Positions 1,459 through 39,058 of a DNA stretch of 39,366 bases are shown here, one piece after another. This stretch comes from Asterionella formosa. Lineage: Eukaryota. Position 1 is the stretch's first letter. Each line of letters opens with the position of its first letter. The position numbers and the translations under genes were made by a program. Below the pieces are notes generated by a model. The model had not been told where the DNA came from. It searched no databases and saw nothing but the letters and a program-made list of their open reading frames with translations. The stretch is taken from assembly GCA_002256025.1 (NCBI GenBank), contig NKIB01014066.1, forward strand, positions 1 through 39,366, given 5' to 3'.

Positions 1459-1498
1459 CCGGTAAGTACCGGTAGAATACCGGTAAGTACCGGTAGAA
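1459..1498. repeat. 21-bp tandem duplication containing three TACCGGTA palindromes
   Basis: ccggtaagtaccggtagaata followed by ccggtaagtaccggtagaa. Confidence 0.9.
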
Positions 1499-2151
1499 AG
1501 ATCCGAAAATATGAAAATAGATGTGGTATTTTTTGATTGTCTCAAGAGCATTTCAGGATGCATATCGGTACATAAGTTGACAGTACAAAATCACTCGATT
1601 TCTATGGTGCGAACTATCGTGCATGTTTATATTGGGATGTTGCACATAATCGCGCCATAGTAATATCCACCTGAAGAAAAGCGTTAAAGGAAGCTATATT
1701 AATTTGGAGTATAAAACTTTAAAGAATATCGTATATGAAGATAAAATGTCGGCCCAGCTAAACGAGGTAATTTTATTTTCTTCCGATGTGCCTCACTCAA
1801 CATTTTCGTGGTCGTTTATCTCAACAACTGGAACACAACATCGATCGGGCGTCAAGACATCCTATATGTAGATGCGTGAAACAAATGACTTGTTCATAGT
1901 AAATATTGTCGTATTGGTAAAATTGAAAAAGTTTGTAGAACAAAAAGTAAGATTACCCCGTTATAGTGGTCTAAGCAGTTCATAGTGGTCTTAAGCAGTT
2001 TTTGACTGGTACAGCAGAGTACTTACCATATAACTATTGTTTTATATATAGATATGATATATACCGGTATGCTCCGTCCTATATTTAGTGATTCTACGAC
2101 GATAATACCGGTAATTGGGTTTCTAGTGACTACATTCAAAGTAGTCAACAT

Positions 2152-2353
2152 GGAATCCTACGTTTAGGTAACTTTGGGAAAAAAAAACCTAAACGTAATG
2201 CGTTTGGGTAACTTATTGGGATATGGGCACGGAATCCCCTAAACGTAATGCGTTTGCGTTGGGTTTTTCACTCCCGTTAGCATCGTTTTTTAGGGTTACC
2301 GAAACCTAAACACTGTTTGGTTTAGGTTTTGGTCCAACGTTAGCAACGGCCTA
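2152..2353. repeat. Dispersed repeat, probable DNA-transposon/MITE end with internal subrepeats
   Basis: CCTAAACGTAATGCGTTTG at 2188 and 2238 (50-bp period). About 55 bp at 2286-2342 recurs, diverged, at 29405-29460. Confidence 0.65.
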
Positions 2354-2581
2354 ATGTACATGAACCTGGTAGTACCGGTAGTCAACCAATCATGTCGTCA
2401 CCGCCAACCAAAATTCTTCCCCCCAAACTCACTCCTCTATCAAAGAGGGGAAACAAGAAATATCCAAGAAGTGGTTATTTACGCGTCGCCTCAAAGAGAA
2501 GACTCGACTAATCATTGATTGCTATTGCTTCAGCCGCTGTTACTGCTTTGACGGCTCCTTCAACGAGCCTAAACATACAGA

Positions 2582-5500
2582 ATGACCGAACACAACAAGA
2601 GAAAGAAGTACCATGACAAGGATAAGTATTATCGGCGTAAGTACAAACACAAGAATCAATATTATTGACGCGCTTCTATAACAATCTCGTGGTGTCTGAA
2701 CTCACCAATCGCATACTACCAGTTGCCAAGGAACAGGGCTTTCGCTCCCGTGCCGCTTTCAAAATATCACAAATCAATCGCAAGTTTCCCATTCTGCAGA
2801 ATGCGAAAGTAGTCCTCGATCTCTGTGCCGCTCCTGGCGGTTGGTCGCAGGTGGCCTCGCGCACCATGCCCAAGCAGGGATCCTTGGTCGTTGCTGTTGA
2901 CATTCTCCCCATTCGATCCCTCGGTCCCAACGTCATTACTATTATTGGAGACATTACCACAGAATCATGCAAATCCGAGATTAAGCAAAACCTACAAGGC
3001 CACATGGTCGACGTGGTCCTGCACGACGGTGCCCCCAACGTAGGCGCGTCCTACGATCGAGATGCCTATCTACAAAACGAAATCTCGCTGCACGCTCTCA
3101 AGTGTGCCACCCAGCATTTGAAGCCTCACGGACACTTTGTCACTAAGCTATACCGGTCCAGAGATTATCAATCCTTTCTGTGGGTCGCACAGCAATTCTT
3201 TGGCACAGTGCAGGCGGTCAAACCAGCGGCGTCTCGGTCGCAATCCGCAGAAATATTTTTGGTCTGTCAAGATTATGTCGCACCCACCAAAATTGATCCA
3301 CGTATGTTGGACCCCAAGCATGTATTTGCTCAAGTAGAAGGAGATTCGACTGGAGGTGGAAATGCACCCAAGAAACTTAACGTCTTTCACAAGTCTTGGG
3401 CGGTGCAAAAGCGACACCGAGAAGGATACGACCATACCGAAATGGACTTTACAATGAGGAAAATTAAGTCGGTTCGAGAATTTATGGGTAACAAGGGGAA
3501 TCCAATTGATATTCTATCCACATCGACGGGATTGAAATTTCAGTGCGACGACTGTGCGGATGAACAAAAGAAGGAGGAAGACTGCAATTGCTACTGTCAC
3601 TTTTACAGACAGCATAGATTGACGACACCAGAGATTAAGGCATGTGTGTCGGATTTGAGGGTTTTAAATAAGTCGGATTTCAAGAGTCTGCTTGTTTGGA
3701 GAGGCAAGTTGCAAGACGCTCTCAAAGAGCTCAAGGCTAAGGAGGCTGAACAGGACGAGGTCAAGAAGGCCAAACGTACACATGATTCCGACGATGAGGA
3801 CGAAGAGCGCGATTCTGATGACGAAGAAGATGAGGTACAAAAGGAGATTAGTGACTTAAGACAGCGTCGGCTGCGAGAAAAGAAAAAGTTGAAGAAGAAG
3901 GAACGAGCTGCCGCTTCGAAACGACGTCGTCGAGCTGCCTTTGGCATGGACTTGAATGCCATTGATGTACCCGAGCACGACCAAATTTTTTCTCTCGCAA
4001 CAATTTCATCCAAGGGAGATTTGGAAGCGGCACGTGAAGTGGATCTCGACAAGGTCATGTATGACGAAGTGTTTGGCGAGGACGAGGACGATGACGCGAA
4101 TGAGGGCGATGACGGGTCGGTTCAGTCACAAGGTGAGAAGGATGATCGCGATGAAGCGACTGGATACTCATTTCGTATGGATCGCGAATTGGATGAAGCC
4201 TACAATCGCTATCTCAAAAACACAAAGGACGGCCTTGCTAAGTCGGGAACTAAAATGGCCAAACGATCTAAGAAGCTTCAGCGTCTCAAGGCGGCAGAGG
4301 AAGCGGATCAAGATGAAGAAATGATGTTGAAGGACGAAATAGGTATTGACGGCGATACCAAGACGTACGCCAAAATGTTGCAAGGACCACGCGATAGTGA
4401 CGACGATGATTCTTCTGTGGACGAGGAACAAGGCGGTGACGATAGCGATGGGTTTGATGACGAGCCACTCACTCCAGGAGAGCACGCAGCGAGGCTAAAG
4501 GCCAGACATAAAATGCCGGAAAAGTCAAGGAATCCCTTGATTCACAAGCTGGAAGAAGCTACTTCTGAAAAGACAGCCCGTTGGTTCAGTAATCCCCTTT
4601 TTGAGAGCATTAGCAACACAGCCAAGCTTGCTGCTTTGCCAAATAACAGAAAGGAGGAAGAAAATGATGGTCTTGATAGTGACGACGAGGCAGATGATAT
4701 CGGCGAGGATGTCATGGAAGTTGGCTCGAGTGAAGACGAGGACGACGATGCACCAAAAAAGAAGAAGAGCAAGATGGACACCAAGCCTAGCAATGGATTA
4801 AATGCGGACGATGTGTTAGCTAGCATGCCCAAGACGGACAAGCAGATTCGTCACGAAAAAAGACTGAAAGCGTCGGAACGTCAAGAACGCCGAGCCAGTC
4901 GAAAGGCACGACTGGCTGGTGACAATGAAGAATTGGAGTTGGTGCCTCAGAGAGTAGATGATGCAGAAAAGGAAAAGCTCCAAGGAATGACGGATGCACA
5001 GAAAGCAAAGCACTTCGAGGCTCGTAATTTGATCAAGGCTGGTCTTGGAGGAAATGTTGACCATGACACATCTAGCGGCTTTGAAGTGGTTCCTGCCGTG
5101 GCTCCGCTCCCAAAATTGGATTCACGTGTTTACAATTCCGACAATGAAGATTACGACAGTGACGACTATGTCCGTACCCTGGCTTTGGGTACCATGATGC
5201 TTCGTCAATCTAAAGCCAAGCAGTTGGTGGACGCCTCCTACAATCGTTATGCATGGAATGACCCCGAGGATTTGCCCGATTGGCTTGTCGATGATGAGAA
5301 CCGCCACTACCGTCCACAACTCCCCATTCCACCCGCTCTCATGCAGAAGCTGAAAGACAAGCAGATGGCAATGTCGGTCCGACCCATTGCCAAGGTTGCC
5401 GAAGCCCGAGCACGCAAAAGTAAGCGTGCGAAGACAAAGTTGCAGGCTGCAAAGAAGAAGGCAGAGGCTGTCGCCAATTCCTCTGAACTTAGCGACACCA

Positions 5501-5727
5501 TGAAGCTCAAAGCTATTTCGAAAGCTATGCGAGGCCAGGACACTAAGAATCCTAGTAAAACGTATGTGATTGCCAAGAAGGGTCGCAACTTGGGAGCCAA
5601 GGGTGTCAAGTTGGTGGACAAGAGATTGAAGAATGACAAAAGAGCAATGGATCGGAAAACGACCAAGTCAAAGAAAGGAAAGCAAAACGGCCTGGTGGGA
5701 GGCAAGAAACGAAGAAATCATTCGTAA
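2582..5727 (+). CDS. SPB1: AdoMet-dependent rRNA 2'-O-methyltransferase SPB1/FTSJ3; join(2582..2636,2723..5727)
   Basis: Splicing GTAAGT(2637)...CAG(2722) gives DKYYRLAKEQGFRSRAAFK. FtsJ motifs VLDLCAAPGGW, HDGAPNVG and KPAASRSQSAEIF are present, as is the Spb1 C-terminus (LVDASYNRYAW, PIAKVAEARARK, KLVDKRLKNDKR). Confidence 0.96.
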
Positions 5728-5842
5728 TTTCTTAAGCTTTAGTGAGCAGAGTATCAATTTAATCCTGTTATGATTCATTTCGAATGTTGCACAGAAGGAA
5801 CTAGGCAGCCTTACCGAATCTTCCTGCCACGACCATATAATC

Positions 5843-6967
5843 CTATACCCACTCGACTGGTGTCTTTAGAACGTCCATCAACTTTTGCTCCTCGCTACCA
5901 TCTTCAATAGCATGATTGTATTCCCACGCAATCAACGGAGGTGCACTCACCATGACACCCTCCACTCTTGGATTGGCAGAAGCCAACCCAAACTTGACAC
6001 CTCTATCATACAACAAGTTGAATTCCAAATATCGACCTCGCCGGAGTAGTTGCCATTGTCGTTGCTGTTCCGTGTAGGTTTCATGTCGATGTTGTTCCAC
6101 AATTGGAAGCCAACTAGGCATCCACGTGTTGGCCACACCTTTAACAAATGCCATGCTGGCTTCTGTGGCATCCATGTCATCAAAGAAAATACCCCCAGTA
6201 CCCCGATGCTCAGATCGAGCGACAAGATAGAAATATGAATCGCATGCTTCTTTCATTGTTGCATAGTCGTATCCTGGAATGGAATGTTTGTCGGCCAATT
6301 GTTTGTAGTCTTGATGAAACGACTTGATGTCGTCCACATTTAAGTAATAGGGCGTCAAGTCTGCTCCGCCGCCAAACCACGCGTTCGTTTTGGAACCATT
6401 GGAGACTAGAAATACTCTCACATCACTTCTAAAGGTGGGAACCATGGGAGACTTGGTATGTAGTACCATACTCAACGCAGCCGCTGAATAAGTGTCTCCC
6501 GCTCTTACCGAAACATCTTGACGTGATCGGATCGAATCGGCACGTTCGGAAGTGAGGATGCCTTGTTGAATCACCGTCAAGGAACAAGCACCCTTTTCAA
6601 TAAAGTCTCCACCCTGCAGCACTCGTGTAATGCCTCCCGATGTGAGTCCCTCCTCGTTAAACATGCCCCATGTGTCGTTACTAAATGTAGCCCCACTCCC
6701 ATCCATCGCCTCGAGCTGTTGAATAATGGAGGCTTGAGTGGATCGCAAACAGGTGCAAAAGTCCTGAAATAACTGTGCAGTATTGGATGCAGCAACAGTG
6801 TCGTTGTCATCGCTAGATGATGCATCGAGACCAAGGAGTGTTGAGGTTGAGTCAGCGTGCTGCGATCCATGCCTACCGGTAGCAGCAGCAACATGATGAG
6901 GTGTCCATGCAAATGAGACTTTGAGTACCAATGTAACAGTCACCAGTGGTAGATATAGAATTCGCAT
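5843..6967 (-). CDS. hemF: Oxygen-dependent coproporphyrinogen III oxidase, predicted plastid-targeted
   Basis: Motifs WFGGGADLTP, EHRGTGGIFFDD and WQLLRRGRYLEFNLLYDRG. The first ATG at 6967 gives a signal peptide ending SFA|WTP (ASAFAP-like). Confidence 0.93.
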   Translation of the reverse strand: MRILYLPLVTVTLVLKVSFAWTPHHVAAATGRHGSQHADSTSTLLGLDASSSDDNDTVAASNTAQLFQDFCTCLRSTQASIIQQLEAMDGSGATFSNDTWGMFNEEGLTSGGITRVLQGGDFIEKGACSLTVIQQGILTSERADSIRSRQDVSVRAGDTYSAAALSMVLHTKSPMVPTFRSDVRVFLVSNGSKTNAWFGGGADLTPYYLNVDDIKSFHQDYKQLADKHSIPGYDYATMKEACDSYFYLVARSEHRGTGGIFFDDMDATEASMAFVKGVANTWMPSWLPIVEQHRHETYTEQQRQWQLLRRGRYLEFNLLYDRGVKFGLASANPRVEGVMVSAPPLIAWEYNHAIEDGSEEQKLMDVLKTPVEWV

Positions 6968-7563
6968 GGTGGCTTGTTCAGAGACTGGTGCCACCTTTAG
7001 TAAGGAGCAGGAAAAAGAGGGTTAGCCACCCGGAAAATGTGAAGATTTGTTTGACAACTTGCTCCAAATCATGTTTATACACGATATTCACGTCTGTATG
7101 ATGCATATAGCATTTTTTCATCTAAATAAAAATAATACCGACTTGCTAGACAACACTCCAATTGTCTACATACATATAATGGTGATGAGCACTTATGGAT
7201 GTCACAAAACGTCGTACTCCCTCTGTTCAACAACGTATACAGGGGGGTACCTGGTACCGGTGAATTCAAGCAAACTTTAGGTCACTGCCTCCTGCCTCTC
7301 ATGAAGCACAAGCTCCGATAATTCTCCGTCTAATAGCCCTTCCTATTTAAAAATTATTCCGAACCGAGGACTGCTCCCAATAGCCATTTGCCTTACCTGG
7401 TACACGGAGTACTGCATACGTATAATAATAGAATATTTCCATCCCATCGTCATTAATATATATACATGTATTTATCCATGACAATCAATATTCTTGTTTC
7501 TCTACCGGTACTCCTTGTTTTCACTCGTCACCATTAATCAGCACCGCATCGGCGGCAAGAACA

Positions 7564-8721
7564 ATGATCTCCCAACGCGCAGTGGCCAATTGGGGGCAAT
7601 GCAGCAGAGCCGATACAAGTAACCTGATAAGACACTTGATGACCCCCCTGACTCCCTTACGAGTCAGTATCAAGTCGAAAGCCCAATGCCAATTTCGATC
7701 CTCCTCGTCGTCGTCGTCGTCCAAAACTACAACAGCACAGTGGCCGTCATCCCTTCAAGACTTTGTCATGGGCACGCCCATCATTACTCGAAGGCTACCG
7801 TATTTGGGAAGTGTCACTATTGATTTCGGAACCAGCATGATGAATTTAGGCGCCGTGACATCACTGACTGGCTTTATGATGACTGACGTTATCTTGCTTC
7901 GAACACTCTCCATCTTTGGATCAGTGTGCGGTATTACGTACAACCTGACGCGAGCTCCTAAACAAATAAATGCATGTGCCTGGGGCGCAGTCTTTATATC
8001 CGTCAATGTTGTTCAGATTGTCAGACTATACTTGTCTCGTAGAGATATTAAATTTGCTGTTGAAGAAGGAGAATTGTACTACAAGAGGTTTGCACCCTTT
8101 GGTGTGGATCCACATTTGTTTCAACGCTTAATGCGTCAGGCTGAGTGGATATCTCTCAAGCGGGGAGAAACTCTTGTTGCAGCTGGGGTGCCTTTGAATC
8201 GGGTTATTTTAATAACCAAGGGCAGTGCAACTGCCATGAAAACAGATGCAACAGCCTTGTATGATTACACTGCCACAGACAATGGATGTCTCGTGGGTGC
8301 TACTGCCATTGTCGATCCAACGATTTTGGGCAGAAACTACCCCAATAATATTGTTGCCAACGAAAATGTGAGAGCTCTTTCCTTTGATACTCTTAAATTG
8401 AAAGCATTTTTAAAGAAGAATGAAAGTACAATTGAAGCAGCCTTGTTGCATCTAATGTATGAGGACTTGATTGGTGCCTTGCGGCGACATCGTCGAGAAA
8501 CAAAGTCTCCGTCACTGGAACAACTAAAATTGATGCTGCAAAAATCAGTGGCTGATGGTCAAATTAGTCCCCAGGAACGTCAATTGATTGCTGATTTCAT
8601 GAAGGAACACAAAATTACCAGGGAGCAATTCATTGCTCTCTTAAAATCAAGTGGTTGGACCGAGAAAGAATGGACGCGAGGTGAACAGCAGCAAGATGAT
8701 GGTAGTGTAGTGGCAAATTGA
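7564..8721 (+). CDS. Popeye-domain-like membrane protein with cNMP-binding-type fold and a C-terminal helical domain
   Basis: Three hydrophobic helices (GFMMTDVILLRTLSI...WGAVFISVNVVQI), then KFAVEEGELY...F.P and LKRGETLV...RVILITKG. The N-terminus is Arg/Ser-rich and presequence-like. Confidence 0.75.
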   Translation: MISQRAVANWGQCSRADTSNLIRHLMTPLTPLRVSIKSKAQCQFRSSSSSSSSKTTTAQWPSSLQDFVMGTPIITRRLPYLGSVTIDFGTSMMNLGAVTSLTGFMMTDVILLRTLSIFGSVCGITYNLTRAPKQINACAWGAVFISVNVVQIVRLYLSRRDIKFAVEEGELYYKRFAPFGVDPHLFQRLMRQAEWISLKRGETLVAAGVPLNRVILITKGSATAMKTDATALYDYTATDNGCLVGATAIVDPTILGRNYPNNIVANENVRALSFDTLKLKAFLKKNESTIEAALLHLMYEDLIGALRRHRRETKSPSLEQLKLMLQKSVADGQISPQERQLIADFMKEHKITREQFIALLKSSGWTEKEWTRGEQQQDDGSVVAN

Positions 8722-8938
8722 AGGGTGTCGCATGAGAGGAAATAAAATGTCCACTATATAGATACGGAGCATATTATGTCGAGGTGACATGTTCTGATGC
8801 AGACGAAGTTGGCTAGATCGTTGCTTTTGGTGAATGAACCAAAAAACTAGCCTCGAGCCTCGATACAATCGACTACGAATAGAGCAATTTATAAACTGCA
8901 AAACCGATTTTGTAAACAATGCCATGCTATAGCTGATT

Positions 8939-10330
8939 CTATCGCGAGTATAGCTTAAGCTGTACTTCCTTGGCTGCACGCACACCTGTCTCCATGGCTG
9001 CTTGAACCGTGCAACAAGCATTGGTGTTGGTGGCTTCTCCGGCGAAAAATATCTTGTCTGCTATTGGTGCTGCCATTGCCTTCAAATGATCCATGGTCAT
9101 GTTGACCTTGGGGTACATATACCCATGTTCCCAAACATGCATATGTGAACCGACAAGCTGCACATCCTTGATAGGTATAGAAAAGACTCTTGTCAGTTGC
9201 TCCAACATGATGGAAGCTGCCTTATCTTGACTGCTGCCGCACATTGCTATGAAATCATTGGCTTTGGGGGAAGTCACGTAGCCAGTGGCAACATGATGCT
9301 CTCCACTCTGTTTGAACCAAATCTCTGGGATAGGACAGTCTCCAAATATCACAGATTGCACATTAGGAGGCCATATTGGCGCGTTAAATTTTAGCAAGAC
9401 CTTCAGGGCCTTATTCATTCCTATGTACTTCAACGCCTCTACCTTGTCACTTCCAAGGCTCATATCGATAGCAGCCAAAGCTGGAGGCGGTACTGTGATA
9501 ATGACCGCATCTGCTTCAAATATTTGGTAAGAACTATCGGATGAAAAAACTCGGATATTGGTGTCATCGTAAGATATTCTTGCAACACTCCAGTTCAAAT
9601 TGACGGAGAATCGCTCGTCTCGTGCCAATTCCTCTGCTAGTCGCTTGACAATACCGTACATACCAATCTTTGCGTTTAGTCTCATATCTCCCTCTATCTC
9701 ATGTTCTTGCCAATGATGTTCAAACGATGCCAATACCGCCAATGAAATACTATCAAGAGGAGCCCCAACTGTGTTCCCATAGCTGGCTTCTGCCAAGGCC
9801 TCCAACTCCGGTGAAAGGTGAAACTGTCGCAATGCCTCACCGACACTTGCACTGGTGTCATGCTCCATCATCTCCTCCATACTACCTAGAGCCTTGGTGA
9901 GTGGCCAAATGCGCTCGTCAGTATAGTTCACAAGTTCTCCTCCAACAAAGTACATGCCATACTTTCCAGCGTTGGTCGGGATCGGCGACGGGCCTCCGTC
10001 GGCATGTGCCGTAATAAAGAGTTCCTCCATCTCTTGCTCTCCAAAGTATTCATCAATGAGATCTGTTAGAACAGTTCCCGTGCCATGGATAAATTCTGCT
10101 CCTAGATCTACCACGAGGTTATCATTATCATTGTTGTTGTCAGCAGCGCGGATCCTACCACCCAATCGATCAGAGGCTTCCACCATTGTAATTTTCAATA
10201 AGGGCTGTTGTTGGACTTTCATATCATGACATTGCTTCGCCCGTGTGGACAATAGCTCTTTCGCTGCCATCAAGCCAGCTATTCCACCTCCTATTATAAT
10301 AACATGATTGTTGGGGTTGATGTGGGACAT
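8939..10330 (-). CDS. Flavin-containing amine oxidase (polyamine/monoamine oxidase family)
   Basis: IIIGGGIAGL (FAD GxGxxG), EASDRLGGR, VDLGAEFIHG and FFAGEATN...VQAAMETGVRAA. The start is uncertain (10330, 10348 or 10393). Confidence 0.88.
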   Translation of the reverse strand: MSHINPNNHVIIIGGGIAGLMAAKELLSTRAKQCHDMKVQQQPLLKITMVEASDRLGGRIRAADNNNDNDNLVVDLGAEFIHGTGTVLTDLIDEYFGEQEMEELFITAHADGGPSPIPTNAGKYGMYFVGGELVNYTDERIWPLTKALGSMEEMMEHDTSASVGEALRQFHLSPELEALAEASYGNTVGAPLDSISLAVLASFEHHWQEHEIEGDMRLNAKIGMYGIVKRLAEELARDERFSVNLNWSVARISYDDTNIRVFSSDSSYQIFEADAVIITVPPPALAAIDMSLGSDKVEALKYIGMNKALKVLLKFNAPIWPPNVQSVIFGDCPIPEIWFKQSGEHHVATGYVTSPKANDFIAMCGSSQDKAASIMLEQLTRVFSIPIKDVQLVGSHMHVWEHGYMYPKVNMTMDHLKAMAAPIADKIFFAGEATNTNACCTVQAAMETGVRAAKEVQLKLYSR

Positions 10331-10631
10331 GGTTGTTCGACTTATCATTAATGAACAGGAATGGAGTACCGGTAGTAACCTATTGTGCATCATTTATCAT
10401 ACAGACGATGTTTCCTCCTCAGTTTACTATGTAGCAAAATGGAACTCAGCCAAGCAGTACATTGTTCATGCATACGAGCTACCTGGTAACCATACTGGTG
10501 ATACAGCCAGCATACCAGTTCTCTGTCGTACAGAAATACAGGCACTGTTACCTTTCTATGTAGCCATGTGCTGGTCGTACCAGCAAGTTGTTGAAGCGGC
10601 ATGCCTCAGGGCCGTTCTTATCATTTTTTTG

Positions 10632-10755
10632 TGTATCACGGAATTTAAATTTTTTTGAAAATGTATCAGCAACGGTAACTCGATTTGAACTGAATTTCAT
10701 TCATTCCAAAAGTGACACTGTATCACTAATTTGTATCACAGTGTATCATGGAGTA
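10632..10755. repeat. Cluster of five TGTATCA motifs ending in GGAG|TA; possible MITE terminus
   Basis: TGTATCA at 10632, 10662, 10719, 10732 and 10742. Confidence 0.5.
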
Positions 10756-11049
10756 CCGGTAACAAGGATTGTCAACGGTGACAGGCCAGCTACGAGCATG
10801 TAGATATAAATGAGCAGTAATATGCATATGCGAAGCTTAAATAAAAATAACAACCGGAATAAAAAAACAAATATCATATCATCTTACGGAGACTGTGTGG
10901 TACATGCTACTAGCCCCTGGTACCAGGTATTGAGAGACTCGTCAACATGTGTGACGCCTCATTTACTGTTGTATCTCTCCAGCACCAGAACTCCCCACAG
11001 CTTCTGAACAGAGGTTCTGACTTAATTGTGGCCCCCATTACATACACAC

Positions 11050-11800
11050 GCTACTCTGTACTGAGTATAAATGGACAATCTCTTGACGCGCATGTGAGTC
11101 TACTAACTAGGGGCAGCACTCATTCCCATACCGCCTACCTTTCTTTCTTGTTACCACCCAACCTCTCAAGTGTCAATTATCCCTAGACTGCCGCTGGCTT
11201 CTTGCCGATTCCCTCAATTTGGGGGGATTTCCTGCAATGATGGATCTCGCCTACACAGACACTCACAGCACCAACAAGAGAATAACACGAGGTTTTTTCT
11301 TTGTTATTTACTCTCCCAACAAATAAGGACTCAGCCTGTACAATCCTACACTATGAAGGGGGAGATTGTTGCAATCTTGGATGTCATTATTCTTTTCACC
11401 AGCCACTTATCACTGGAACACCAGAGATAGTGGAGATATGTCCCATGGCAGCAGAAGAGCAGAAAGGGGGAGATTATAGCACCACAGAAACCAAGCAAAT
11501 GAATTGATGAGAAAATTATTCATATTTGTTTGACATTTTAAGATCGATTCCACAGCAAACCTGGGCAATCCTGTGGCAACCATATCTTGGTTAACAGATT
11601 GAATGAAGGGACCAAGTAACAGAGAAATATTGCAACATACCTCTGGTATAGTCATTCAATGATGAACAGGCACAGTATAGTGGCCAAATGTATGACCAAT
11701 TCATATGTATGTTGAACCCATGGATTTATAGCAGACAGGCAGCTGCTACCAGCAGCAGTAAAACCAACAGGGTATGAAATTTATGTATAGAGCACACATT
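11050..11800 (+). mobile_element. Possible highly degenerate 3' fragment of a non-LTR retrotransposon
   Basis: CpG-poor block. Broken translations IWGDFLQ*WIS and WNTRD...HG resemble the IGW..FL.G.IS / W..RN...HG C-terminal motifs I recall for diatom LINEs. Weak. Confidence 0.3.
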
Positions 11801-11945
11801 ATAGTATAATTTCACATTTATTTGGTAACATTTTTTCTCTTTGTGTGTCTGCCAAGGATGGGGTTTGTAGTGATTTGCACTGCAGTTGTTCATACCTTGT
11901 TTCCACTTTTTTCATTTACTAAGAACCATGTCTATTAGTACCGGA

Positions 11946-12126
11946 TGGAGAATGGCTTAATTGGTGAGCACTCATCCTCATGACGAGGTGGCGGGTTCGA
12001 TTCATGCATTTTCCACCTTTCTTTGTTCTTTTATGTAGTCCCCAGGGTTCCGGATGGTGAGGCTGACAAAGCGACAGGTCCCGTTGCTTGTGTACATACC
12101 GTACGGACGAATAAAATCGGTTCTAA
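11946..12126 (+). mobile_element. tRNA-derived SINE-like element
   Basis: Pol III A box TGGCTTAATTGG (11953) and B box GGTTCGATTC (11994). An imperfect cloverleaf at 11946..12015 is followed by a ~110-bp non-tRNA body ending AATAAAATCGGTTCTAA. Confidence 0.65.
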
Positions 12127-12129
12127 TTG

Positions 12130-12901
12130 TGTCCATTCAAGTGGGCATGAGTGCGATTTTTGGATAGCAAAGTTACTTTGACTCAATTACCAACTCATTC
12201 AACAACCTTTTTTGCAAATGTTCCTTTGTTCCTATTTTGATTCTTTGTTGAGGTTGATTTGTTGCACCAACTTATCTCTAGACTTGTGGCTGGTTTTTTT
12301 GAATTCGGTTTTAAGTAGCTTGGGACATGATTCCTTTCCTTTGGGTCTCCCATAGCTGCAGTCAAGTTTTGCACATTAGCCTTGGGTGGGACTTCGGGTG
12401 GGTGAATTTTTATCTGAAGACTATAAATTTCTAAGGCTTGGTGATCAATGATTTGCTTTGTTGAAAGCCTATTCACAGAATTGTGAGCTTTCTGCCTTGA
12501 AACCCTCTGCATGGTTGTTCTCTGGCAGATCGACTCTTCCATGACCTTCTTCTTGCATGGTTTACATGTCGCTTGCTTACTTTTGAACTTCATTTTCAAT
12601 TTTGCTAGGTTTTTCATTTGCTTCCATGGTTGCTCAGTTTTTCCTCAGCCTGCCTGTATTCCGAACTCTCCTGTCATTCTGCGGCTTCAATGCGCGCTTC
12701 GTGCACATCCCTTACACATGGAGCACTTGTCGTTACGGATAGGATTCGGATGCCAGGGCAGCACGAAATGGATTTTCAAGCTATTAGTTTAATGTATGCT
12801 AAATTAATATATTCCTTTTATCGCCATCAGAAAAGGGAAAATTACCCCTCCTTGGCAAAAAGCGTCATCAGAAGAACTCTATCAATTCTGACTTAAACTG
12901 G
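12130..12901 (-). mobile_element. Truncated TA|CCAGT-ended DNA transposon (one end plus degenerate N-terminal ORF)
   Basis: The terminus reads TA|CCAGTTTAAGTCAG on the minus strand. Its subterminal region is shared with 33481-33664 (44/46 identity, 12715-12760 vs 33619-33664). Basic ORF at 12195..12617. Confidence 0.65.
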
Positions 12902-12975
12902 TACCAGGTACCTGGTAACACTTCTGTATGGTGGTGGTTCTCCATCCCGGGCAATAGACACCCAGCGAAGGGATA

Positions 12976-13290
12976 CCAGTTAATGTCAATATTGCGAAAG
13001 TTAGAAATCACACCTCAAACATCGTTGTCACCATTTGTGAAAAGGGTTTAAATTAACTTTTAAGTTTAAAAAATAAAGTTATTTTAGCTTGTACTCAATC
13101 CGTGTTCATATTCATTTCATCATTAGAAACACACACCTTCATTCACCATGGAGAACGACTACGACCGTGTTCCTTATACCGGTCCGTTCAGAGGCGTTCT
13201 GGCAAACAAATGTTTTTGCTCCTTAGTAACTTCGTCTATAAAATTAACTTTAACGTACTATAATAATTTAATTAAGATCATTTCAACAGT
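12976..13290 (+). mobile_element. Another TA|CCAGT-type transposon end (relic; right boundary uncertain)
   Basis: TA|CCAGTTAATGTCAATATTG at 12974 resembles CAGATAATGTCAATTTTG at 33481. Confidence 0.4.
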
Positions 13291-13705
13291 AGTACCGGAT
13301 GCAATATAGTTTATGTTTACATATGTATAATAATATGTACAGTGCTTGTTACTTTCTAGACTGCTGGTATCGTATCGATGTAAATATTTGATGATTTATA
13401 TACCTATACTACATACCGGTATGTTGTATTGAGAACAAAGATACATTCTTAGCTATGTGATCCGGATAAAAATTGTCATCTTAAACCACAAACAATACAT
13501 ATTGTGAAGCTGTTTTGAGAAATATACGGGCCACTACACTAAATGGAGAGAAAGCAACTCTATCGAACTCGTAGTATACAAACAAAAAGGGTAATAAATC
13601 AAGTCTGACAAGGCAGCGAAAAACAACCGGCAAACAATTCGCTGAATTAAGTCTAATCCCAGAGTGCCCCATAATACAGGCCGATTCGATAACTACCAAA
13701 ATCAC

Positions 13706-16700
13706 TTACTCCTCGTCCAGCGCAGATCCGCATGTCAATATATCTTGGAGCTCGGGGAAAATCTCTAGCCATAACAAATCAAATAACATGTATGCCATTG
13801 ATTTGGTGACCATACGGTTTTGCAGCATCTCATGCAAAATGTCAAGTCCATTCTGAGTAATATTCTGTCCAAGCACAGCTTTAATTTGATCTGGGAAAGC
13901 CTCGCCTAGACCTAATTTCGCTTTCGAAGCGAGTGATATCTCCTCATCTGGAGTCAATGCTGGGGATGATGTGAAGAAAACGCCATCAGGCCAGATCATA
14001 TCAAGCGTAAAGTGGACCCAGCCCGCCAATGCCTCGGCGTTGACGAACTTCACGTGATTTTCATACAACATCTTTCGGAATTCACCAGAAGTGGTAACCG
14101 CAAATGACATAGTCTTCATTGCAGCAAACATTCGGTTTCGAAAGAATGAAGCATTGTCAAAGTCGAACTGGTAACGAATGAGGTCGAAGATCGCATGACG
14201 AACTTGAGACAGGGGCACTTCGTCAATCTTTGCTTTTATAGACGGAATCATGCTTATTTCTTTGACCTTAGCAATTCTTGAAGGTTGCTCCTCGAGATCG
14301 CCTGTACTTTTTACCGCAAGAGACACAGCCTCATTTTTCTTCACAGAGGAACTGGTTCCAATGCTCCTTACTGAGTTGCTTGGGACACTGTCAATTCCGG
14401 TGGTGACATTCGGCAGAGAATCAAATAAGGATGCATCGCTACGGAAATGAACTGACTTGTTTTCGACTATGTCCTCGCTTTCGTGAATTGACCTTCTCGA
14501 GACTTCTCTTTCTGCAATGTGGATATTTCGAATAATGTCGACCCTGCCAAACGGATCGGTGACGGGATTCATTGGTGAGCCACCTGTCACAACTTCAGAC
14601 GGAAGTGGACATGAGGCGCCCAAAAACAGCAATAGCTCGGAACAGCGATTAAGGAGATGATTTGGCGACAAAAGATACTTGAGGTAACTATCTGTGACTG
14701 CACATCGCTTTTGGATAGACTTCTTTGTCAACCCAAGCCCGGCACTTTTGGTAGCTTGCCCAAGAGAAGGTATCAACGCCTGACGACGCCGAGGTCCGAC
14801 TCCGATTCCTCCAACTGAAAACGCCGCAGTAGCGGCACCAACTAAACGTGCTCCTGCACTTACTGACTGTTCTGTCGGTGCCACTTGACTCTTAAGCTGC
14901 TTATGGAGAATTGCGAAATCTTGAAATTGCCTCCATACAGTCCATTCCTCGCGGAACACCTTAGCGTCAGACGTTGATGACTTATATGATTTCCTGTCTT
15001 CTTCATCGATCTCTTCTTCGCATAGCTCAACTATTGCGACACACCGGATTCTAAACATAACTACTGTCGGAGCCATTGCTAAAATTGCATGCCCGGGCTC
15101 CTTGACAGTTGTTGCTCCTTCGATCTGAGCTGTCAAGCTACGAATTATGGTTGGATATCGTGGCACGAGCAATCCGTTTCGTCTGAGCTGCTCTCTGTCA
15201 ATGTGATTGATTCCAAGCTTTAAGTCTCTCAACAGGATTGATTGCTTTTCACGTTCTGGACTGCTAGCATAGTCAAGAAGAGTCACAGTTGGCCACAGTA
15301 GCGCTTCAGTTCGAGATTTCGTTGCGCTACGTGCAGAACCTGCCATGACACATTTGGTCAAACACATTTGCTGTGCTTCCTGTCGAGCTTCCGTAATCAA
15401 AATTGCAGCGCGAATGTGTGACGATCGATACGGCTTCACCTCAGTGACTGAACCATCACCTTGTTTTCTGTTGTACTTGAGGAACAGAACTGGGTACCCA
15501 TCCTTGCCGACCTCAACATTCGATCGTCTAATAGCTCGGTGTTTGCTACCCTTTTCAATATGGTCGCTGCTTACTACCTCGTCGTCACCGTCGTAGTCCC
15601 AATCTCGTCCAATATGAAGTAGCGCCAAACTCAAGGCTGCGTCGCTGATTTCAAGGCTACTAGCGTCGGCACGATGAGTACCAGTTGCTGAGGAGTCGTA
15701 CACTGTAAATTTCTTTCCGTCAAGGTCCACCATAGGACGTTCAAATAGTGATACTCTGTACACAAAGTCGATTGCTTTTCCACTTCGTGGAGCTGCCGTA
15801 AAGTCCGTTGTTTCCATTACAGAGCTTGCCAGGAGAGAACCCGACCGAGGAACACTGCCTTTGGGTGCCCACTTCTGACAGAGGTGACGTTCCTTCAAGA
15901 AATCGCCTGTCAGAATACCGGGCGAGCTTGCTAGGTTCACCGTCTCCGGTACTCGATCTTGCCGCTGATCAAGCTGTCGTCCATCATTTGGTAATTCAAT
16001 CGAGGCAGTGCGATCATTTGGGTAGTACTTAAGTAGACATCGACGAATGTATTTAGCTCCTCCATGTTTTGACGAGCCTTGTCGAGTAAGTGGTTCCTCA
16101 TACGTAGCAGCGAAACACTTGTAGCTCTGGTCATGATTCCTTGGATCCCGGTGAACTCCAACAGCAACCAAAGGCCTGGGTTGAGCTCGAAGAAGGAATG
16201 ACGAGTCTTCGTCAGGAACCTCAATCCTTCGCTTTTGACTTGCCATTTCAATTGTCAACAACGAAAGCGGTAAGATCTCACTTTTTGCACCGTCTGCTTG
16301 CTCTCCGCTATTCTTGCGGCGTCCCCCGCTTCGAAGCGACAGCATATTCGTGCCTGCATAAAGGATTCTGGAGACTTGATGCAATTCCCGTTGAAAGGCG
16401 ATCGACGCCTCTGACGCTCCCTTGGACCGGCAGATAACAGGAATGCCCTTCGTAGTCTCTTGGGTAGCAGTTGCGTTCAACCACGACTGCGTTCGCCTAT
16501 CCCGTTCCGACCGAAGACTAGCAGCAAAATTTTCGTTTTTTCTAAAGTCAAGATACTTTGGTGTGGCTGTTCCAATCGCTTGAGGGACTGGAAGGGGCGA
16601 GGCCTTGTTGGGTTCGGTCTCGTTTTCGGGTGCATCGAATGCTCCAACACCCATCAGTCTTGAGAATCTGCCACTTTTTGACGGTCGCTTGACTTCTTCT

Positions 16701-19483: not shown

Positions 19484-20303
19484 GGTCAACTTGTATTCGG
19501 TATGTCCCTGTACGATGATTTTTAAATTATGATTTGACACAATGACACAAATTTATTCTACCGGTATCAGACTACAGTTATTATTAGACGCTTCCATATT
19601 GTATACCGGTAGATACCGGTAGTCTACCGGATCGTATATCACTCGACAGTATACGGTATATTTATTTGCCTTCACTCTCCTGGTGATGCGGGCTGCTGAG
19701 GAACTTCTCAGTAGGAGTGTCCCAGGTATAAAAACCAGTAAAAATCGGCACATAGAAAGGAATCCTCGGTTATCTTCCGCATTTATGTATTCAGTAATTT
19801 GGCAGAGACTAATACTTTAGCTATCTTTATCCGATATTAAATAGTTCATTCAAGCAAAATGACCGCAGGTTGCAGGTACTGGAACCTTCCGTCTCAGCAT
19901 GCTGATGATCCTGTCTGAAACTTTCATAGTAATAAGTCCACCAGGAATACATACATGCCGTCTAAATAATTAATCTATTATATACAGATCCTCATGTCAG
20001 AAGGATTAAATGCTACACTACCCGGTACAACAGCAAGAAAGGCAGCCAGCGAGCATTTCTCATTGCTCAATCATGCTCGGCTTGCTACATATATGTTCCT
20101 TCCAGATTTAATTGATCCCCGATACCGTTAGACTACCGGTTCAAAAGCAATGATAAACAAAGTTAACGGCGCCGGACAGGCTGAGCACATAGGACTATTC
20201 AACCACTCAAATATTATATACACACATGTATTACTGTACATATCAAAAACACAACAAGAATGACACCAAACAACAAGACTTGAAAAAATATATGTACGAT
20301 AAA

Positions 20304-20351
20304 CGGTAGGCAGGTGTACCGGTAGGCAGGTGTACCGGTAGGCAGGTGAAC
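20304..20351. repeat. Three tandem 16-bp units CGGTAGGCAGGTG(T/A)AC
   Basis: Seen directly; unit junctions recreate TACCGGTA. Confidence 0.9.
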
Positions 20352-23330: not shown

Positions 23331-23368
23331 TGAGAGTCTAATCAATCAAATTCCTGGTATTTGGTCCG

Positions 23369-26943: not shown

Positions 26944-27718
26944 AATTGCTGTTCCTGGATGGTTTCTTCTTTCCTTTTACATCTAGATCGAGTACCGGTA
27001 ATGATGGTCACGATATTTGACTGCATGCACTTCTGATGGCATGCGATGAACGAATATACACAATAGGCTTTATTCCTTGTTTCTGGGACTCTGGCAACAG
27101 GACCATCATGGGCTTGCTTTCGCAACTTACACTAGATGTATTTAGTCACACTTCCGGTACCATTGAGAACATGTATGCATATATGCTAGAAATTCCAAAT
27201 ATTCAACATAATTCGATGTAGTAACTGCTCTGACTGGAAACCGAGATAGATTGAGAACACTTGATATAGCGTGATCATCCTACAAGGCAAGATGTCAAGA
27301 TAAAAGGTGGTCGTTAGGGGGAATTTGGTGACAAGACGGGTTTCACTATGTGTACGTATTAGAAAAATAAGGATACTATATAAGTGGAGTTCATGTCGAA
27401 CTCCATTTGAAGTCAAAATGACAGCAAATTTCCTTTCTCACAAGAAGCGAGCTTTCTCTTCACAGTTTTGCTGGCTAGATAACTTGCAAGCTTCCATGTC
27501 GTAGTGTTCCTTCTGTAAATCAATCCCATTTTCTTTCGTTTTCCCGTGTCACAGGAAGCCCTCATCATTCTCCAATCTCGTATTCATGACTTTATGAAGC
27601 ATAATTTCCTGCATTATTTGAATTTTAATTGATAAATAATTAGAGGCTTATTTATACTATTAATTTAAGAGCAAAGTGGAGAGGGACATGATCTGTTGAC
27701 AAAACACTGCTCTGGACG

Positions 27719-29480: not shown

Positions 29481-29672
29481 TAAAATTACTGGCTCAAACG
29501 ATGGGGATTTTCCATCCATGTACCCGTTAGGTACCAGCAGCTTCCTATATTATACCTTTTTTCTACAATATTTTCATCAATATAAATATGTTGGCATACC
29601 GGTAGTCTACTAAAATACAGGTGGCTGAGCTGTTGCTTCGCCAAAAAATGTGACGGTGCTGTAACTATGGAC

Positions 29673-29788
29673 TACCATGTACCGTGGTACCTGGTACCGT
29701 ACCGGTATGTACCGGTAGTCGCGAGCCTAAAATACAGAAGCAACCAGTATATGACTTTTTGTACTACCCTAGTACCTGGTACCAGGTA
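29673..29788. repeat. Chain of TA-CC..GG-TA palindromic units (putative stacked excision footprints)
   Basis: ta-ccatg-ta-ccgtgg-ta-cctgg-ta-ccg-ta-ccgg-ta-tg-ta-ccgg-ta, and ta-cctgg-ta-ccagg-ta. Confidence 0.75.
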
Positions 29789-30209
29789 GCATGCATGTGC
29801 GGGAATGTATCTGGACATTCATGCAATGTAAGAAGTACATGCATGTTGTATATTTGTTCATACATTCGTCACACACTCATGGCTCCTGGCTGAATATGTT
29901 CCATCAATACCCTAACCCTAACAGTGTGTAGTCTACCGGTACTGTGTACCAGTAGTCGCTCATCAATTTTATAAGACATATCTTAGGTTTACAGGTCTTG
30001 TAGGCATGAATATATATGTATTGCAGTCAAACCGGTTTATATGTATTCACATCGCAGGCTTGAACAATTTTACGAAAAATGAAGAGTTACAGTGGCTGTA
30101 TATGCAATGGTCCCTGCCTTGATCGCAAAGCTCAAGAATCCCTAGAGGCGACCGTGTATATGAAATCACTACCTGGTATCTCCAATTGCATATTACCTGC
30201 GATCTAGGA

Positions 30210-32319: not shown

Positions 32320-33280
32320 TATTTCCTAAAGGCCAACAATGGAGCCATATTTTCATGTCAGAGACCGTAATTCACAGCAGAAATTGCCTTTGACACATCA
32401 CAAAATGAAGCAAATCGCTCGCAGGTATCTCATTAACAACGATGACCCAGTACCATTTGTAAAAACTAAATCAGGCGGGAATGGCAACTAATTTTCACTA
32501 GTACAATTACATGCTACTATGACACTAAATGATTCACAGTTGTTGGCAGGACATTTCTCATCAATTTCTATCCTGACTACAAATTCAAGTTTAAAGATCC
32601 AACTCATGAAATGCAAGAGAGACGTACTCACTCAAAAGGAAAGGCGCCTTGCTGCATTTGCTCTTGAAAAGGATGACATTGTTGATCTGGCTTCAGGGGC
32701 TTGGGATGAATCCTTTGCCCATATCGCCAAAAACCAAAAAGCTGTTGCTGAACAAGGTTGGGTCCATTGAACTACAACTTGTAGCTCCATCCGTAAAAAA
32801 AATTTAACTGAGAAGCATTGAATCTGCAAACAGAAGCAAACAATAATTAACCAGTCTCTTTCATTCCCCAATCCAGAATAAACATGTGCCAAGGAGGTAT
32901 TACTTGAACCCTACTAGTTGATCAGGTCATACAGTATCGCAATCATGAGGATGCTAGAAAGAGAATAAATCTGGACTAACTTGTTGCCCACCAACAAAAA
33001 CAAGCAGCACTCAAGGCAATTGCAAGCAATAAACAATACACAGCCAGTCTCCATGTCGGTGTGGGCAGTTACTTGCTTGTTGGATCCTGAAGAGGTCTAT
33101 GACCAGGTGAAAAGGAAATTGCTTATGGAAGAAGCACAGAGTGAGCAAGAAAATCGGAAAATAGATGCACACGCAACACTTGCAAACGAGGTTTATGCAA
33201 TCAGAACGCTAAACAACAGTCAGCAGAGTGGATAGCGGCGCAAACGAAAACAATTGCATTGTAGTACAAGCAAATGAATT
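32320..33280 (+). pseudogene. Degenerate pogo-like transposase (C-terminal half)
   Basis: AWDESFAHIAKNQKAVAEQGW.H.NYNL.LHP, followed by segments homologous to the element at 5..2009. Many stops and frameshifts. Confidence 0.7.
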
Positions 33281-33700: not shown

Positions 33701-33751
33701 CGGAAAAGCGCTGCCACCTTTCACAGCAGAATCGCTAACTACCAACTTCAA

Positions 33752-33893
33752 CTTGCTGACTGCGGACTTCTGTTGCTAACTGCTGACTTGATTTGCTGAA
33801 AAAAATTAGAAATTTTCACTGACTCCTGACTTCATTTGCTGACTACTTAGTCTACTGACATGAATCGCTGACTGTTAACTTCACTTTGCTGAC
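33752..33893. repeat. Array of (G)CTGAC(T) motifs
   Basis: About ten CTGAC/CTAAC-like units in 140 bp. Confidence 0.7.
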
Positions 33894-34385
33894 GTCAAGA
33901 AACCTACTTTGTATATAGGAAGAGACCGACTACCGGTGTATGAATCGTGTTTACTATTGATAACTTAATTATGATGGAAACGCATCTTTTAATCGTTTGT
34001 CTACTGATGGACCTTCCTGTACAAGCTTTTTGTTGCTTGTATCTGCTTTTTGAGTCATGAATTCATTTATTTAAGTCAAGTCAAGCTTCAGTCATTAATT
34101 TGTGTCATGCTGGGAGTACCACAGTATCAATTCTACTCAAATGTCTACACAATGCACCTCTCTGTTTTACTTTTACATGAAATCCTCACATTTTCAAAGC
34201 ATGTCATTACTTATGAGTTTGTACAAATCCCTTCATAGCACCTTCGTATGCCGGTTTGACGATAACAATAAGAGCATACAGTTTTTTTTGCAAATCAATC
34301 AGGAATAAGATCACTCCAACCGCGAGATTGTTCGCTTTTGATCCAGTTGTTGACGTTGCGAACGCTTCGCTACACTCTGTCAAGG

Positions 34386-36839: not shown

Positions 36840-36920
36840 TGGAGCGGGGCCCAGCATCACCATAATGACACTATTAGTGGCTAAACATTAGTAACATGTC
36901 CACATTAATCAAACTCCTTA

Positions 36921-38771
36921 TTAGTACCCATCTATGGCTTTGCTCAAGTATGGAATTACGTCAATGATCGGAATTCGAATTTGCTCAGTCGAGTCTCGTT
37001 CACGTATGGTAACTCCACTGTCCTTCTCAATGGTATCAAAGTCAATGGTGATGCAAAACGGAACACCAATTTCGTCAGCACGCCGGTATCGACGCCCAAT
37101 CGCTCCACTGGCATCCCATTGTACATTGTATCGCAATCGCAAGTTGTCAAAAAGTTCCCTTGCTACGCCGACTAGCTCTTCCTTGTTCTTGACAAGAGGG
37201 CAGACAACAGCCTTAACGGGAGCAATGGAAGGATGGAACTGTAAAAAGTTCCTTTTTTCTCCTCCAATCTCATCTTCGGCGTATGCAGAGCAAATTAATG
37301 CCAGAATCAGTCGGTCCACCCCTAAACTAGGTTCAATGCAATGAGGAATAAATTTTTCCTTGCTTTGCTCATCGTAATACTCCAACGACTTTCCCGACCC
37401 ATCCGAGTGCTGTGTCAAATCAAAATTTCCACGAGCAGCGATACCCATGAGTTCCTGGGTGCCAAACGGAAAGCGGAAGGTGATATCTGTGCACGCACGA
37501 GCATAGTGAGCCAAGCTGTCACCTTCGTGAACGTCCCATCCCATTAAGTGTTCTTTCAATCCAATTTGGAGCCTAATGGTATTGTGGCGAAGAAACAATG
37601 GTAAGTATATTTTCCAGTCTACTAAGATAGGGCATTCACTCCGTGAAAACACTCACAAAAAGTCTTTGCTATCCTTCATCCATTGTTCATGAAATGGCTG
37701 CCATACGTCATCGCCTGGTGGAATAAAGTATTCAACTTCCATCTGCTCAAATTCTCTCGAACGAAAAATGAAATTTCGTGGAGTAATTTCATTGCGAAAG
37801 GCCTTTCCAATTTGAGCAATTCCAAAAGGAATCTTTTGCCGGGAAGTGCCAAGTGCGTTCTTGAAATTGATGAAAATTCCTTGCGCTGTTTCGGGACGTA
37901 GGTATGCGATATTGGTGCTGTCGGTAGCAGCACCAACGTTTGTCTCAAACATGAGGTTAAAATCACGAGGCATGGTTAGTGTGGGTTTGCCTGAGGCCGG
38001 AGATGGTATTTCCGTCATTTGTTCTTCCGTAGCTTCCATTAGTCCAACAAAGGAGAAGCTTTCAAGGGGCAAGTTTTTCATATCTTTCTCCTTCAAGAGT
38101 GCTTTGGCTTGTTTAGTGGCTTCCTTCACCATTTCTTCGTCGTTATCTTCTTGGACACAAATGTACCCGACCGTTTCCTTGGTTTCGCTAAGAACGACTG
38201 GGGCATAAAAAAGTTGATCGGCGCGGAAACGTAATTTAGTTTCCTTGCAATCTACCATTGGGTCAGAGAATCCGTCGACGTGGCCTACATTTCGTTGAGT
38301 TGAACGGTTAGCAACGAAATGGCTCGCGAACATATGAGCACATTAAAAGCAGTGAAAGTTAGCATTCGCCTTACCGGAGGACTTCCATGTCGCTGGGTTG
38401 TGGATGATGCTGCTGTCCAAGCCAACGACATCTTCTCTTCTCGTCACGAAGTGCCTCCACCACGCATCCTTGACATTTTTCTTCAGTTCAGATCCAATAG
38501 GGCCATAGTCATAAAAGCCAGCGTACCCATTGTAAATTTCTGAAGACGGAAAAACGAATCCGCGTCGTTTACATAAGGAAACGATGTCTTCCATGCTGGC
38601 CTGATCGTAAGCGTCTTCGTTGACGATGGGCTTAGCGGATGCCGTTTCTTCCGTTGTCGAGAAGAGGCGGAGGCTGGCGAGAGTGATGGAAGACGCTCTG
38701 GGAGCCGAAAAGCCAACAGCAAACTTGGGAAGCAACGCCATGCTAGTCAACAAGGAAAAGTAGAACTTCAT
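36921..38771 (-). CDS. glyQS: Glycyl-tRNA synthetase (alpha2 type), organellar; complement(join(36921..37572,37657..38284,38375..38771)), 558 aa
   Basis: [52 protein letters not shown] and [12 protein letters not shown]. Two GT-AG introns restore the frame. Presequence AVG|FSAP. Confidence 0.95.
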
Positions 38772-39058
38772 ACTCTAGATGGAGCCGTCAATGGATAGTG
38801 TTGAATCCACAAGTTCGGACTGGATTCTATTGTGTCTGTAAGACAACAATGGACGGAAGACAGTCAAGGGGAGGCTTTATTGATGTCAACCCGATAATTA
38901 TGGCTGGAATCATTCTCAGAGTACATACCGGTATAGTAGCCACCTTAGCCCTAGTATGATAGATAATTAGCATAGGGAATATTTTATGGATAAATATATT
39001 CGTGCATTACTTACGCAATGTTGAAAAGGATATACCGGTAACAACATAAGCTATCCCT

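Follow-up and report, generated by a model that had tools for sequence, protein, structure and literature searches.

The DNA analysed here, which we call the window, is a 39,366-nucleotide stretch of the Asterionella formosa assembly GCA_002256025.1 (contig NKIB01014066.1, positions 1–39,366 of the forward strand). By Pfam, the products of its open reading frames (ORFs) include Spb1, coproporphyrinogen oxidase (CPOX), PXA-PX nexin, class 3 lipase and other eukaryotic housekeeping proteins; the closest named relatives of the CPOX come from the diatoms Cylindrotheca, Nitzschia, Fragilaria and Cyclotella (55–68% identity). An oomycete source for the window was rejected on the strength of these relatives and of the chance-level frequency of other oomycete promoter words given below. 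The left edge of the window is occupied by an element of ~2 kb with terminal inverted repeats (TIRs; positions 5–2009), and the DNA between genes is strewn with two short words: the palindrome TACCGGTA and a form one letter longer, TACCWGGTA (W being A or T). The subject of this work is the origin of these words and their relation to transposable elements such as that at 5–2009.

Both words are far more frequent than expected by chance. TACCGGTA occurs 23 times in the window, against a mean of 0.18 in dinucleotide shuffles, and TACCWGGTA occurs ten times, against a mean of 0.16; for neither word did any of 100 shuffles reach the observed count. An earlier note on this stretch, made from the letters of the sequence, had listed the same 23 and ten copies; every coordinate that it gave is exact, and its expectation of less than one copy by chance holds (about 0.2 for each word). 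Among all 8-mers of the window, TACCGGTA shows the greatest over-representation (23 copies versus 0.56 expected from base composition), and 23 of the 80 occurrences of CCGG are embedded in it. GGTACC is likewise in excess (17 versus 4.0 expected), mostly within the same motif patches. The signal is sharply bounded in two respects. Firstly, as the spacer between TACC and GGTA is varied, enrichment is found solely at zero letters (23 copies) and one letter (11 copies, ten with A or T and one with C, at 20019), with 0–3 matches for each spacer length of 2–8 letters. Secondly, the 24 single-substitution variants of TACCGGTA together reach a total of 17, versus about 6.5 expected, beside the 23 perfect copies. 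Such sharpness goes beyond that of a typical binding site and fits insertions that would be young or little decayed.

By place, 28 of the 33 sites are intergenic, three lie within the TIR element and two (6874 and 10367) fall inside the first ~30 codons of ORFs, where they may belong to the 5' leader. Motif density amounts to 33 sites per 15.7 kb of non-genic DNA, or about 1.5–2 per kb. The closest gene end is a 5' end for 24 of the 28 intergenic sites and a 3' end for the other four, a bias to be read with the caveat that 3'-end spacers are short and that the motif tracks repeats. Some sites share letters beyond the core: the longer word TACCGGTAGTC occurs four times (2373, 19614, 29597, 29710), TACCAGTAGTC once (29955), and GAGTACCGGTA at 10367, 10754 and 26993 and, reversed, at 7503, in each case at too few sites for significance. 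A telomere-like CCCTAACCCTAAC (29911–29923) lies in an intergenic patch, adjoining a TACCGGTA.

To compare the sites with homologous DNA, Logan contigs from four metagenome runs of four studies (X2, X6, X7 and X8) were aligned to positions 1–20000 at a likeness of at least 88%; the stretch occurs in runs from freshwater, lake and 'algae' metagenomes. Contig depths were summed, giving a quantity that is not a copy number and that may include other organisms. In X2, this depth is flat at about 150–160 over genes and stands at 1,150–24,800 in the bins 1–2668, 10006–13340 and 19344–20000. The high depth of these motif-rich spacers indicates that they are multi-copy repeats: 15 of the 20 sites in 1–20000 fall into ten bins with a depth above 1000, four into two mildly raised bins, and one into a single-copy bin.

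Among the 12 of 53 indel rows listed for this region, six-letter gaps occur twice only, at 2106 and at 10753/4, and both sit exactly on a TACCGGTA. Since the 20 sites make up less than 1% of positions 1–20000, this coincidence is unlikely to be a product of chance. At 2106, the six letters are missing from a summed depth of 1940.9 out of 2037.2 in X2 (about 95%), 81.9 out of 90.1 in X7 and 84 out of 84 in X8: the sequence is GATAA-TA-ATTGG in most homologous copies and GATAA-TACCGGTA-ATTGG in the window. Here TACCGGTA is clearly the rare, derived state. At 10753, the gap accounts for a depth of 3108.7 out of 7617.9 in X2, 43.1 out of 346.3 in X6, 76.5 out of 372.8 in X7 and 39.5 out of 204.5 in X8, and the loose contig ends behind 10755 run on as post-motif sequence. 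Six-letter differences at a TA, of the kind that the earlier note had named as support for an origin by excision, are thus found at 2106 and 10754, where homologous repeat copies carry a plain TA. Inserted letters that are independent of their flanks, as here, rule out footprints of the hairpin (P-nucleotide) type left by hAT elements.

The TIR element is bounded by a perfect inverted repeat (2–32 and 1982–2012) that includes the outer GTAC, so that the TIR measures 28–31 nt and reads GTAC-CAGTCAAAAACTGC... at both ends. The ends are TA-CCAG...CTGG-TA, just as had been described, and two readings fit them equally well: a TA duplication with tips CCAG...CTGG, or a GTAC duplication with tips CAG...CTG. 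No Pfam family matched the ORFs of the element, and a search of the Atlas returned a sole lead, ISL3-like, weak and below the level of useful recognition. The earlier assignment of the element to Tc1/mariner retains the CAG-type TIR tip, and loses the DD(E/D) transposase, which was found neither in the window copy nor in one of the further copies described below (L003); GTAC also fits as well as the proposed TA duplication. For this element, 'Tc1/mariner' therefore serves as a provisional comparison rather than as a classification.

A search of metagenome contigs for a 22-letter stretch of the TIR yielded four further loci, L001–L004, whose copies are 98–99% identical among themselves and 84–90% identical to the window copy, and are likewise without a long ORF. 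The element is a non-autonomous member of a family represented in two or more kinds of sample. In X2, summed depth over the element is 4,400–13,000, compared with about 155 over the neighbouring genes, depth again not being a copy number. No viral contig was found to carry the TIR, and a scan of the window for other TA-flanked TIR pairs turned up nothing beyond this element and two pairs attributable to chance. The three TACCGGTA copies inside the window element (1467–1495) are missing from L001 and L003; in the alignment the window copy is 17 letters longer there, and the contigs of other element copies part from the window at 1463. As a 21-bp tandem duplication at 1461–1502 covers part of this cluster, it does not stand for three separate events.

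The flanks of the element copies link it to the motif. All five insertions (the window copy and L001–L004) differ in their flanks (Table 1), indicating that they are independent, and all seven visible element ends abut a TA that lies within G-TA-C. Scar-like pieces adjoin four of the five insertions, the pieces being CCTGGTACCTGG-TA, CCTGG-TA, TA-CCGGTA and TA-CCAGTTACC; of the four metagenome copies, three adjoin CC(W)GG pieces. In L003, the point of insertion is the first TA of a TACCGGTA. In L002, about 20 TAs are crowded into 125 bp, and between them stand almost only CCGG, CCAGG, CCAG, CTGG, CCAGGG and CCCTG, which are combinations of left-tip prefixes with right-tip suffixes. TA-sharing of the same kind occurs in the window, in the doublets 12902/12909 and 29773/29780 and in the array 29686–29717. 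Arrays of this kind would be expected if elements had inserted and excised time and again at one place, and they suggest that scars are favoured targets. The longer predicted scars TACCATGGTA, TACCCTGGTA, TACCAGCTGGTA and similar forms do not occur in the window; TACCCTGG and CCAGGG forms, however, are present in L002 and in one X8 contig. At the right junction of the element, where the window has TA-element-TA, an X8 contig reads GGTA-CCCTGG-TA-CAGAG (...GTGTGGTACCCTGGTA-CAGAG; GGTACCCTGGTACAGAG).

Table 1. Positions of the TIR element and of the motif sites in the window, and the letters that flank the five element insertions.
Feature	Position	Strand	Evidence or context
TIR element, ~2 kb, non-autonomous, multi-copy	5–2009		inverted repeat, further copies, depth
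Left TIR, CCAGTCAAAAACTGC...	5–32	+	inverted-repeat search
Right TIR	1982–2009	-	inverted-repeat search
TA at left end, candidate target duplication	3–4		GTAC at 2–5 equally suitable
TA at right end	2010–2011		GTAC at 2009–2012 equally suitable
Window flanks			GG-TA-element-TA-CAGCAG
L001 flank			...TTACCTGGTACCTGG-TA-element
L002 flank			element-TA-CCAGTTACCTGG
L003 flanks			...AACCAG-TA-element-TA-CCGGTATG
L004 flank			...GTACCTGG-TA-element
Three TACCGGTA inside element, 10–11 bp apart	1467–1495		without counterpart in other element copies
TACCGGTA	2062–2069		high-copy repeat right of element
TACCGGTA	2106–2113		six letters longer than plain TA of most homologous copies
TACCGGTA	2373–2380		motif search
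TACCGGTA	6874–6881		leader or first codons of CPOX gene
TACCTGGTA (7248, 7394) and TACCGGTA (7503)	7248–7510		divergent CPOX / POPDC-like spacer
TACCGGTA (10367) and TACCTGGTA (10480)	10367–10488		motif search
TACCGGTA	10754–10761		six-letter presence/absence between repeat copies
TACCAGGTA	10921–10929		unique X2 contig begins exactly at site
Doublet TACCAGGTACCTGGTA, middle TA in common	12902–12917		motif search
TACCGGTA	13414–13421		single-copy DNA 3' of PXA-PX gene
TACCGGTA (19559, 19604, 19614) and decayed TACCGGAT (19625)	19559–19632		repeat upstream of PXA-PX gene
16-bp tandem repeat with two TACCGGTA (20317, 20333)	20305–20345		motif and repeat search
TACCGGTA	26993–27000		50 bp beyond GST_C ORF
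Densest patch, counted as nine sites (named: 29597, 29688, 29700, 29710, 29773, 29780, 29934, 30170)	29597–30178		
TA-sharing arrays of densest patch	29686–29717 and 29773–29788		
Two TACCGGTA	38926–39040		upstream of class II aminoacyl-tRNA synthetase gene

Other traces of repeats were seen in the same material. Two decayed relics lie in one spacer that holds repeats and no TACCGGTA: 33173–33269 resembles the element interior (76% to L001 1439–1533), and 33519–33664 resembles window 12715–12858 in reverse. A short repeat with CCAG...CTGG-like ends, similar to a miniature inverted-repeat transposable element, occupies positions 58–160 of L001 beside a TACCTGGTA and is half-present in the window at 19816–19880; contigs connect window 12914/12920 to 19816 via about 34 other letters.

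We consider it likely, with a probability of roughly 0.55, that most TACCGGTA and TACCWGGTA copies are scars of cut-and-paste DNA transposons. This best-supported explanation draws mainly on the TA gaps in homologous copies and on the element copies that sit in arrays of their own tip letters. The form of the words agrees with it: TA+CC+GG+TA and TA+CC(A/T)GG+TA are composed of a target duplication, terminal letters of TA-CCAG...CTGG-TA, and the second copy of the duplication. In the proposed mechanism—excision followed by end-joining—an element with a duplicated TA target would leave, and the break would be rejoined with both TA copies retained; the outermost letters of each end (CC..., ...GG) would stay between them, giving TA-CC-GG-TA or TA-CC(A/T)GG-TA. 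The two classes may have different makers. The GTAC-bound element at 5–2009 would produce the TACCWGGTA class, as GTAC + C(A/T)G + GTAC, akin to the CWG scars of the Sleeping Beauty type, while a putative related element that accepts any TA would produce the TACCGGTA class. Scars would then be favoured landing sites, from which arrays could grow, and some may later have been copied along with their carrier repeats.

The earlier note had arrived at the same scar reading, with a resident transposon family as its source. Part of that reading is supported, by the TA gaps at two sites, the terminal letters and the flanks of the other element copies; the part that fares poorly is the element at 5–2009 as the maker of most TACCGGTA sites. 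TACCWGGTA has flanks that match this element: G occupies 12 of its 20 sides within the window, and 36 of 48 once L001–L004 are included, so that the word usually reads GTACCWGGTAC. The flanks of TACCGGTA do not: G stands on 12 of 46 sides in the window, G..C encloses none of the 23 sites, and the two gap-proven sites have the TA contexts aTAa and gTAa. An element seen exclusively in GTAC is thus unlikely to have made most of the TACCGGTA sites, whose flanks are of another kind.

This mismatch of flanks is one of several points that weigh against an origin as scars. The polarity of the gap is clear at 2106 alone; at 10754 the motif is the commoner state by depth, implying that some motif copies were multiplied along with their repeat rather than by separate excisions. 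Gaps were seen at two of the 20 sites of 1–20000, among the indel rows listed and in depths that may include other organisms. The X8 junction can be read as a scar (TA-CC-CTGG-TA) or as an unfilled site by an older motif, the left flank in the window being four bases long. No transposase was found in the window element, and the L003 copy has short, decayed ORFs only. Distribution is patchy, with no site in the ORF-free intervals 21.5–23.8 kb and 31.4–34.3 kb (5.3 kb in total). Adjacent sites are often spaced by 10–11 bp (1467/1478/1488; 19604/19614 and the decayed copy at 19625; 29700/29710), which, like the predominance of sites nearest a 5' gene end, suits a binding site. Finally, TACCGGTA is identical to M94, a 'high-confidence' palindromic promoter motif of Phytophthora infestans reported beside M93, TACATGTA (Roy et al. 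2013, PMC3597505).

That last identity gives substance to a different account, in which the words are sites for a dimeric transcription factor, with half-sites TACC and GGTA zero or one letter apart, selected in promoters as proposed for oomycete M94; the link to transposons would be incidental, or would reflect the insertion of elements into open promoters or into GTAC. In Table S1 of Roy et al., M94 is over-represented among germinated-cyst genes (p 0.00012), is marked yes/no/yes for conservation and has 0.03–0.22 copies per kb (PMC3597505); the same word has been listed as motif-9 by Seidl et al. 2012 (PMC3520976) and as streme-5 for Plasmopara halstedii (PMC10031896), and its sister word TACATGTA is bound by the MYB-related PsMyb37 (PMC11134190). 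A term search of a 2024 paper on binding specificity in P. infestans (PMC11267843) did not return TACCGGTA. Diatoms and oomycetes are both stramenopiles and a shared factor is conceivable; a spacer of zero or one letter is typical of dimers, and the 5' bias and recurrent 10–11-bp spacing noted above point the same way. We nevertheless judge selection as binding sites unlikely to be the origin of the words. It does not account for the pair of exact six-letter gaps that reduce the word to one TA, for the TA-sharing arrays or for the link to element tips. The motif is much sharper than is usual for such sites, its density is about ten times that of M94, and it is absent upstream of three genes with long spacers. 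Other oomycete promoter words stand at chance level in the window (INR/FPR 19 versus 15.2 expected, TACATGTA 1 versus 0.65), and a literature search of limited coverage gave no diatom paper containing TACCGGTA. A second search, of like coverage, found no paper on excision footprints (mariner) in diatoms. An origin as scars and a later use as binding sites are compatible, and both can be true.

The reverse order of events, with words first and elements second, would also bring the two together. The words could be pre-existing preferred targets (palindromes of the GGTACC/GTAC type) or parts of repeats, on which elements home in and which amplification spreads; the six-letter differences would then be deletions between the TA copies elsewhere. 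The GTAC context of all seven element ends, flanks that carry the motif, the excess of GGTACC, the presence of the motif in most repeat copies at 10754 and the 15 of 20 sites in multi-copy DNA can all be cited in its favour, and tandem duplication does account for some copies (16-bp units at 20305–20345, 21-bp units at 1461–1502). On the other hand, the origin of the word itself is left unexplained, and where about 95% of the depth is without the six letters, as at 2106, an insertion is the simpler event. The window sites also stand in unrelated contexts, a self-BLAST of the window giving six short internal matches only, and the array pieces between TAs are prefixes and suffixes of the element ends; we therefore find this order of events rather improbable. 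Even less credence, and indeed very little, can be given to replication slippage, by which the TA-sharing arrays of seven-letter units would be minisatellite expansions with no transposition involved. GTACCAG does run in one orientation in L002, and the 16-bp tandem repeat at 20305–20345 is of a kind that slippage could account for, but the solitary sites in at least 19 unrelated contexts are beyond its reach, as are the mixture of CAG, CTG, CG and CCTG units and the link to the element ends.

Known systems offer partial parallels for scars of this form. Sleeping Beauty leaves the footprint TA-C(A/T)G-TA and Tc1 the footprint TA-CA-TG-TA; element tips read CAGT... in Tc1/Bari and CCAGGT... in Mos1. 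IS630 targets CTAG with TA duplicated, and piggyBac targets TTAA and is excised precisely. We know of no Tc1/mariner element with a 4-bp GTAC duplication. Like Tc1/mariner footprints, the words of the window have TA on both sides and two to five tip letters in between, and the central A or T of CC(A/T)GG has its counterpart in the CAG/CTG overhang mismatch of Sleeping Beauty. The finding that all seven element ends lie in GTAC, with TA central, may be likened to the palindromic 4-bp targets of IS630 and piggyBac; unlike in precise piggyBac excision, extra letters remain here. The window differs from the Tc1/mariner systems in that its element is without transposase and its duplication could be the 4-bp GTAC, and in that the putative scar is the top 8-mer of the spacers, forms arrays, and has elements sitting in what would be its earlier copies. 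Tc1/mariner footprints are reported to be 2–4 bp long (PMC7913693).

The parallel with oomycetes is of another kind. There, in another stramenopile, the identical palindromic 8-mer is enriched upstream of genes, and both oomycete words have the structure TA + 2 + 2 + TA, the form expected of scars of CC..GG and CA..TG elements. Seidl et al. recognized taCATGta as the Tc1 footprint, an idea dropped for their motif-1, TACATGTA, owing to its conservation and abundance (PMC3520976). Unlike in the window, the oomycete words are treated as conserved binding sites, one of them bound by PsMyb37; here, in contrast, density is ~10 times higher, TACATGTA is not enriched, and the TA gaps point to insertion. 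One may tentatively go further and suppose that the abundant TA-NNNN-TA promoter palindromes of stramenopiles (TACCGGTA here, M94/M93 in Phytophthora) were born as excision scars of elements of the IS630-Tc1-mariner type ending in CC..GG or CA..TG, then became preferred 'landing pads' for re-insertion before genes, some being captured as sites of MYB-related factors. We regard this wider proposal as doubtful. If it is true, transposon traffic writes new regulatory words directly, six letters per event. Scars of excision have been described at single loci and in assays; they are not known as the dominant spacer word of a genome. Should the words of the window be scars, this diatom holds a countable, datable record of cut-and-paste activity, in which scars can attract new insertions, and it becomes worth asking again, for oomycetes, if the palindromes TACATGTA and TACCGGTA of their promoters started as transposon footprints.

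The metagenome contigs also differ from the window in other ways. Those of X6 and X7 have six extra letters within 7244–8185 and 11 gap letters within 19197–19837. Two differences at single-copy depth, of strain or haplotype, are common to X2, X6 and X7: a 141-bp stretch (2184–2324) is skipped, and a 45-bp stretch (7293–7337) is swapped for 14 other letters. At positions 10620–10680 lies a short repeat with many TGTATCA words, whose summed depth of 73,691 at 10647 (X2, 37 contigs) marks it as extremely abundant.

Two groups of genes deserve mention. At a tRNA-like stretch between them, near 11.95 kb, ARAGORN found no tRNA gene. Within 5843–10393, CPOX and an amine-oxidase/protoporphyrinogen-oxidase-like gene (two genes of tetrapyrrole-pathway type) stand 2 kb apart, with a POPDC-like cyclic-nucleotide-binding gene between them. 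The class II aminoacyl-tRNA synthetase gene (36921–38771, minus strand) is spread over three adjoining ORFs (36921–37652, 37653–38333 and 38343–38771), an arrangement suggestive of short introns or of changes in frame.

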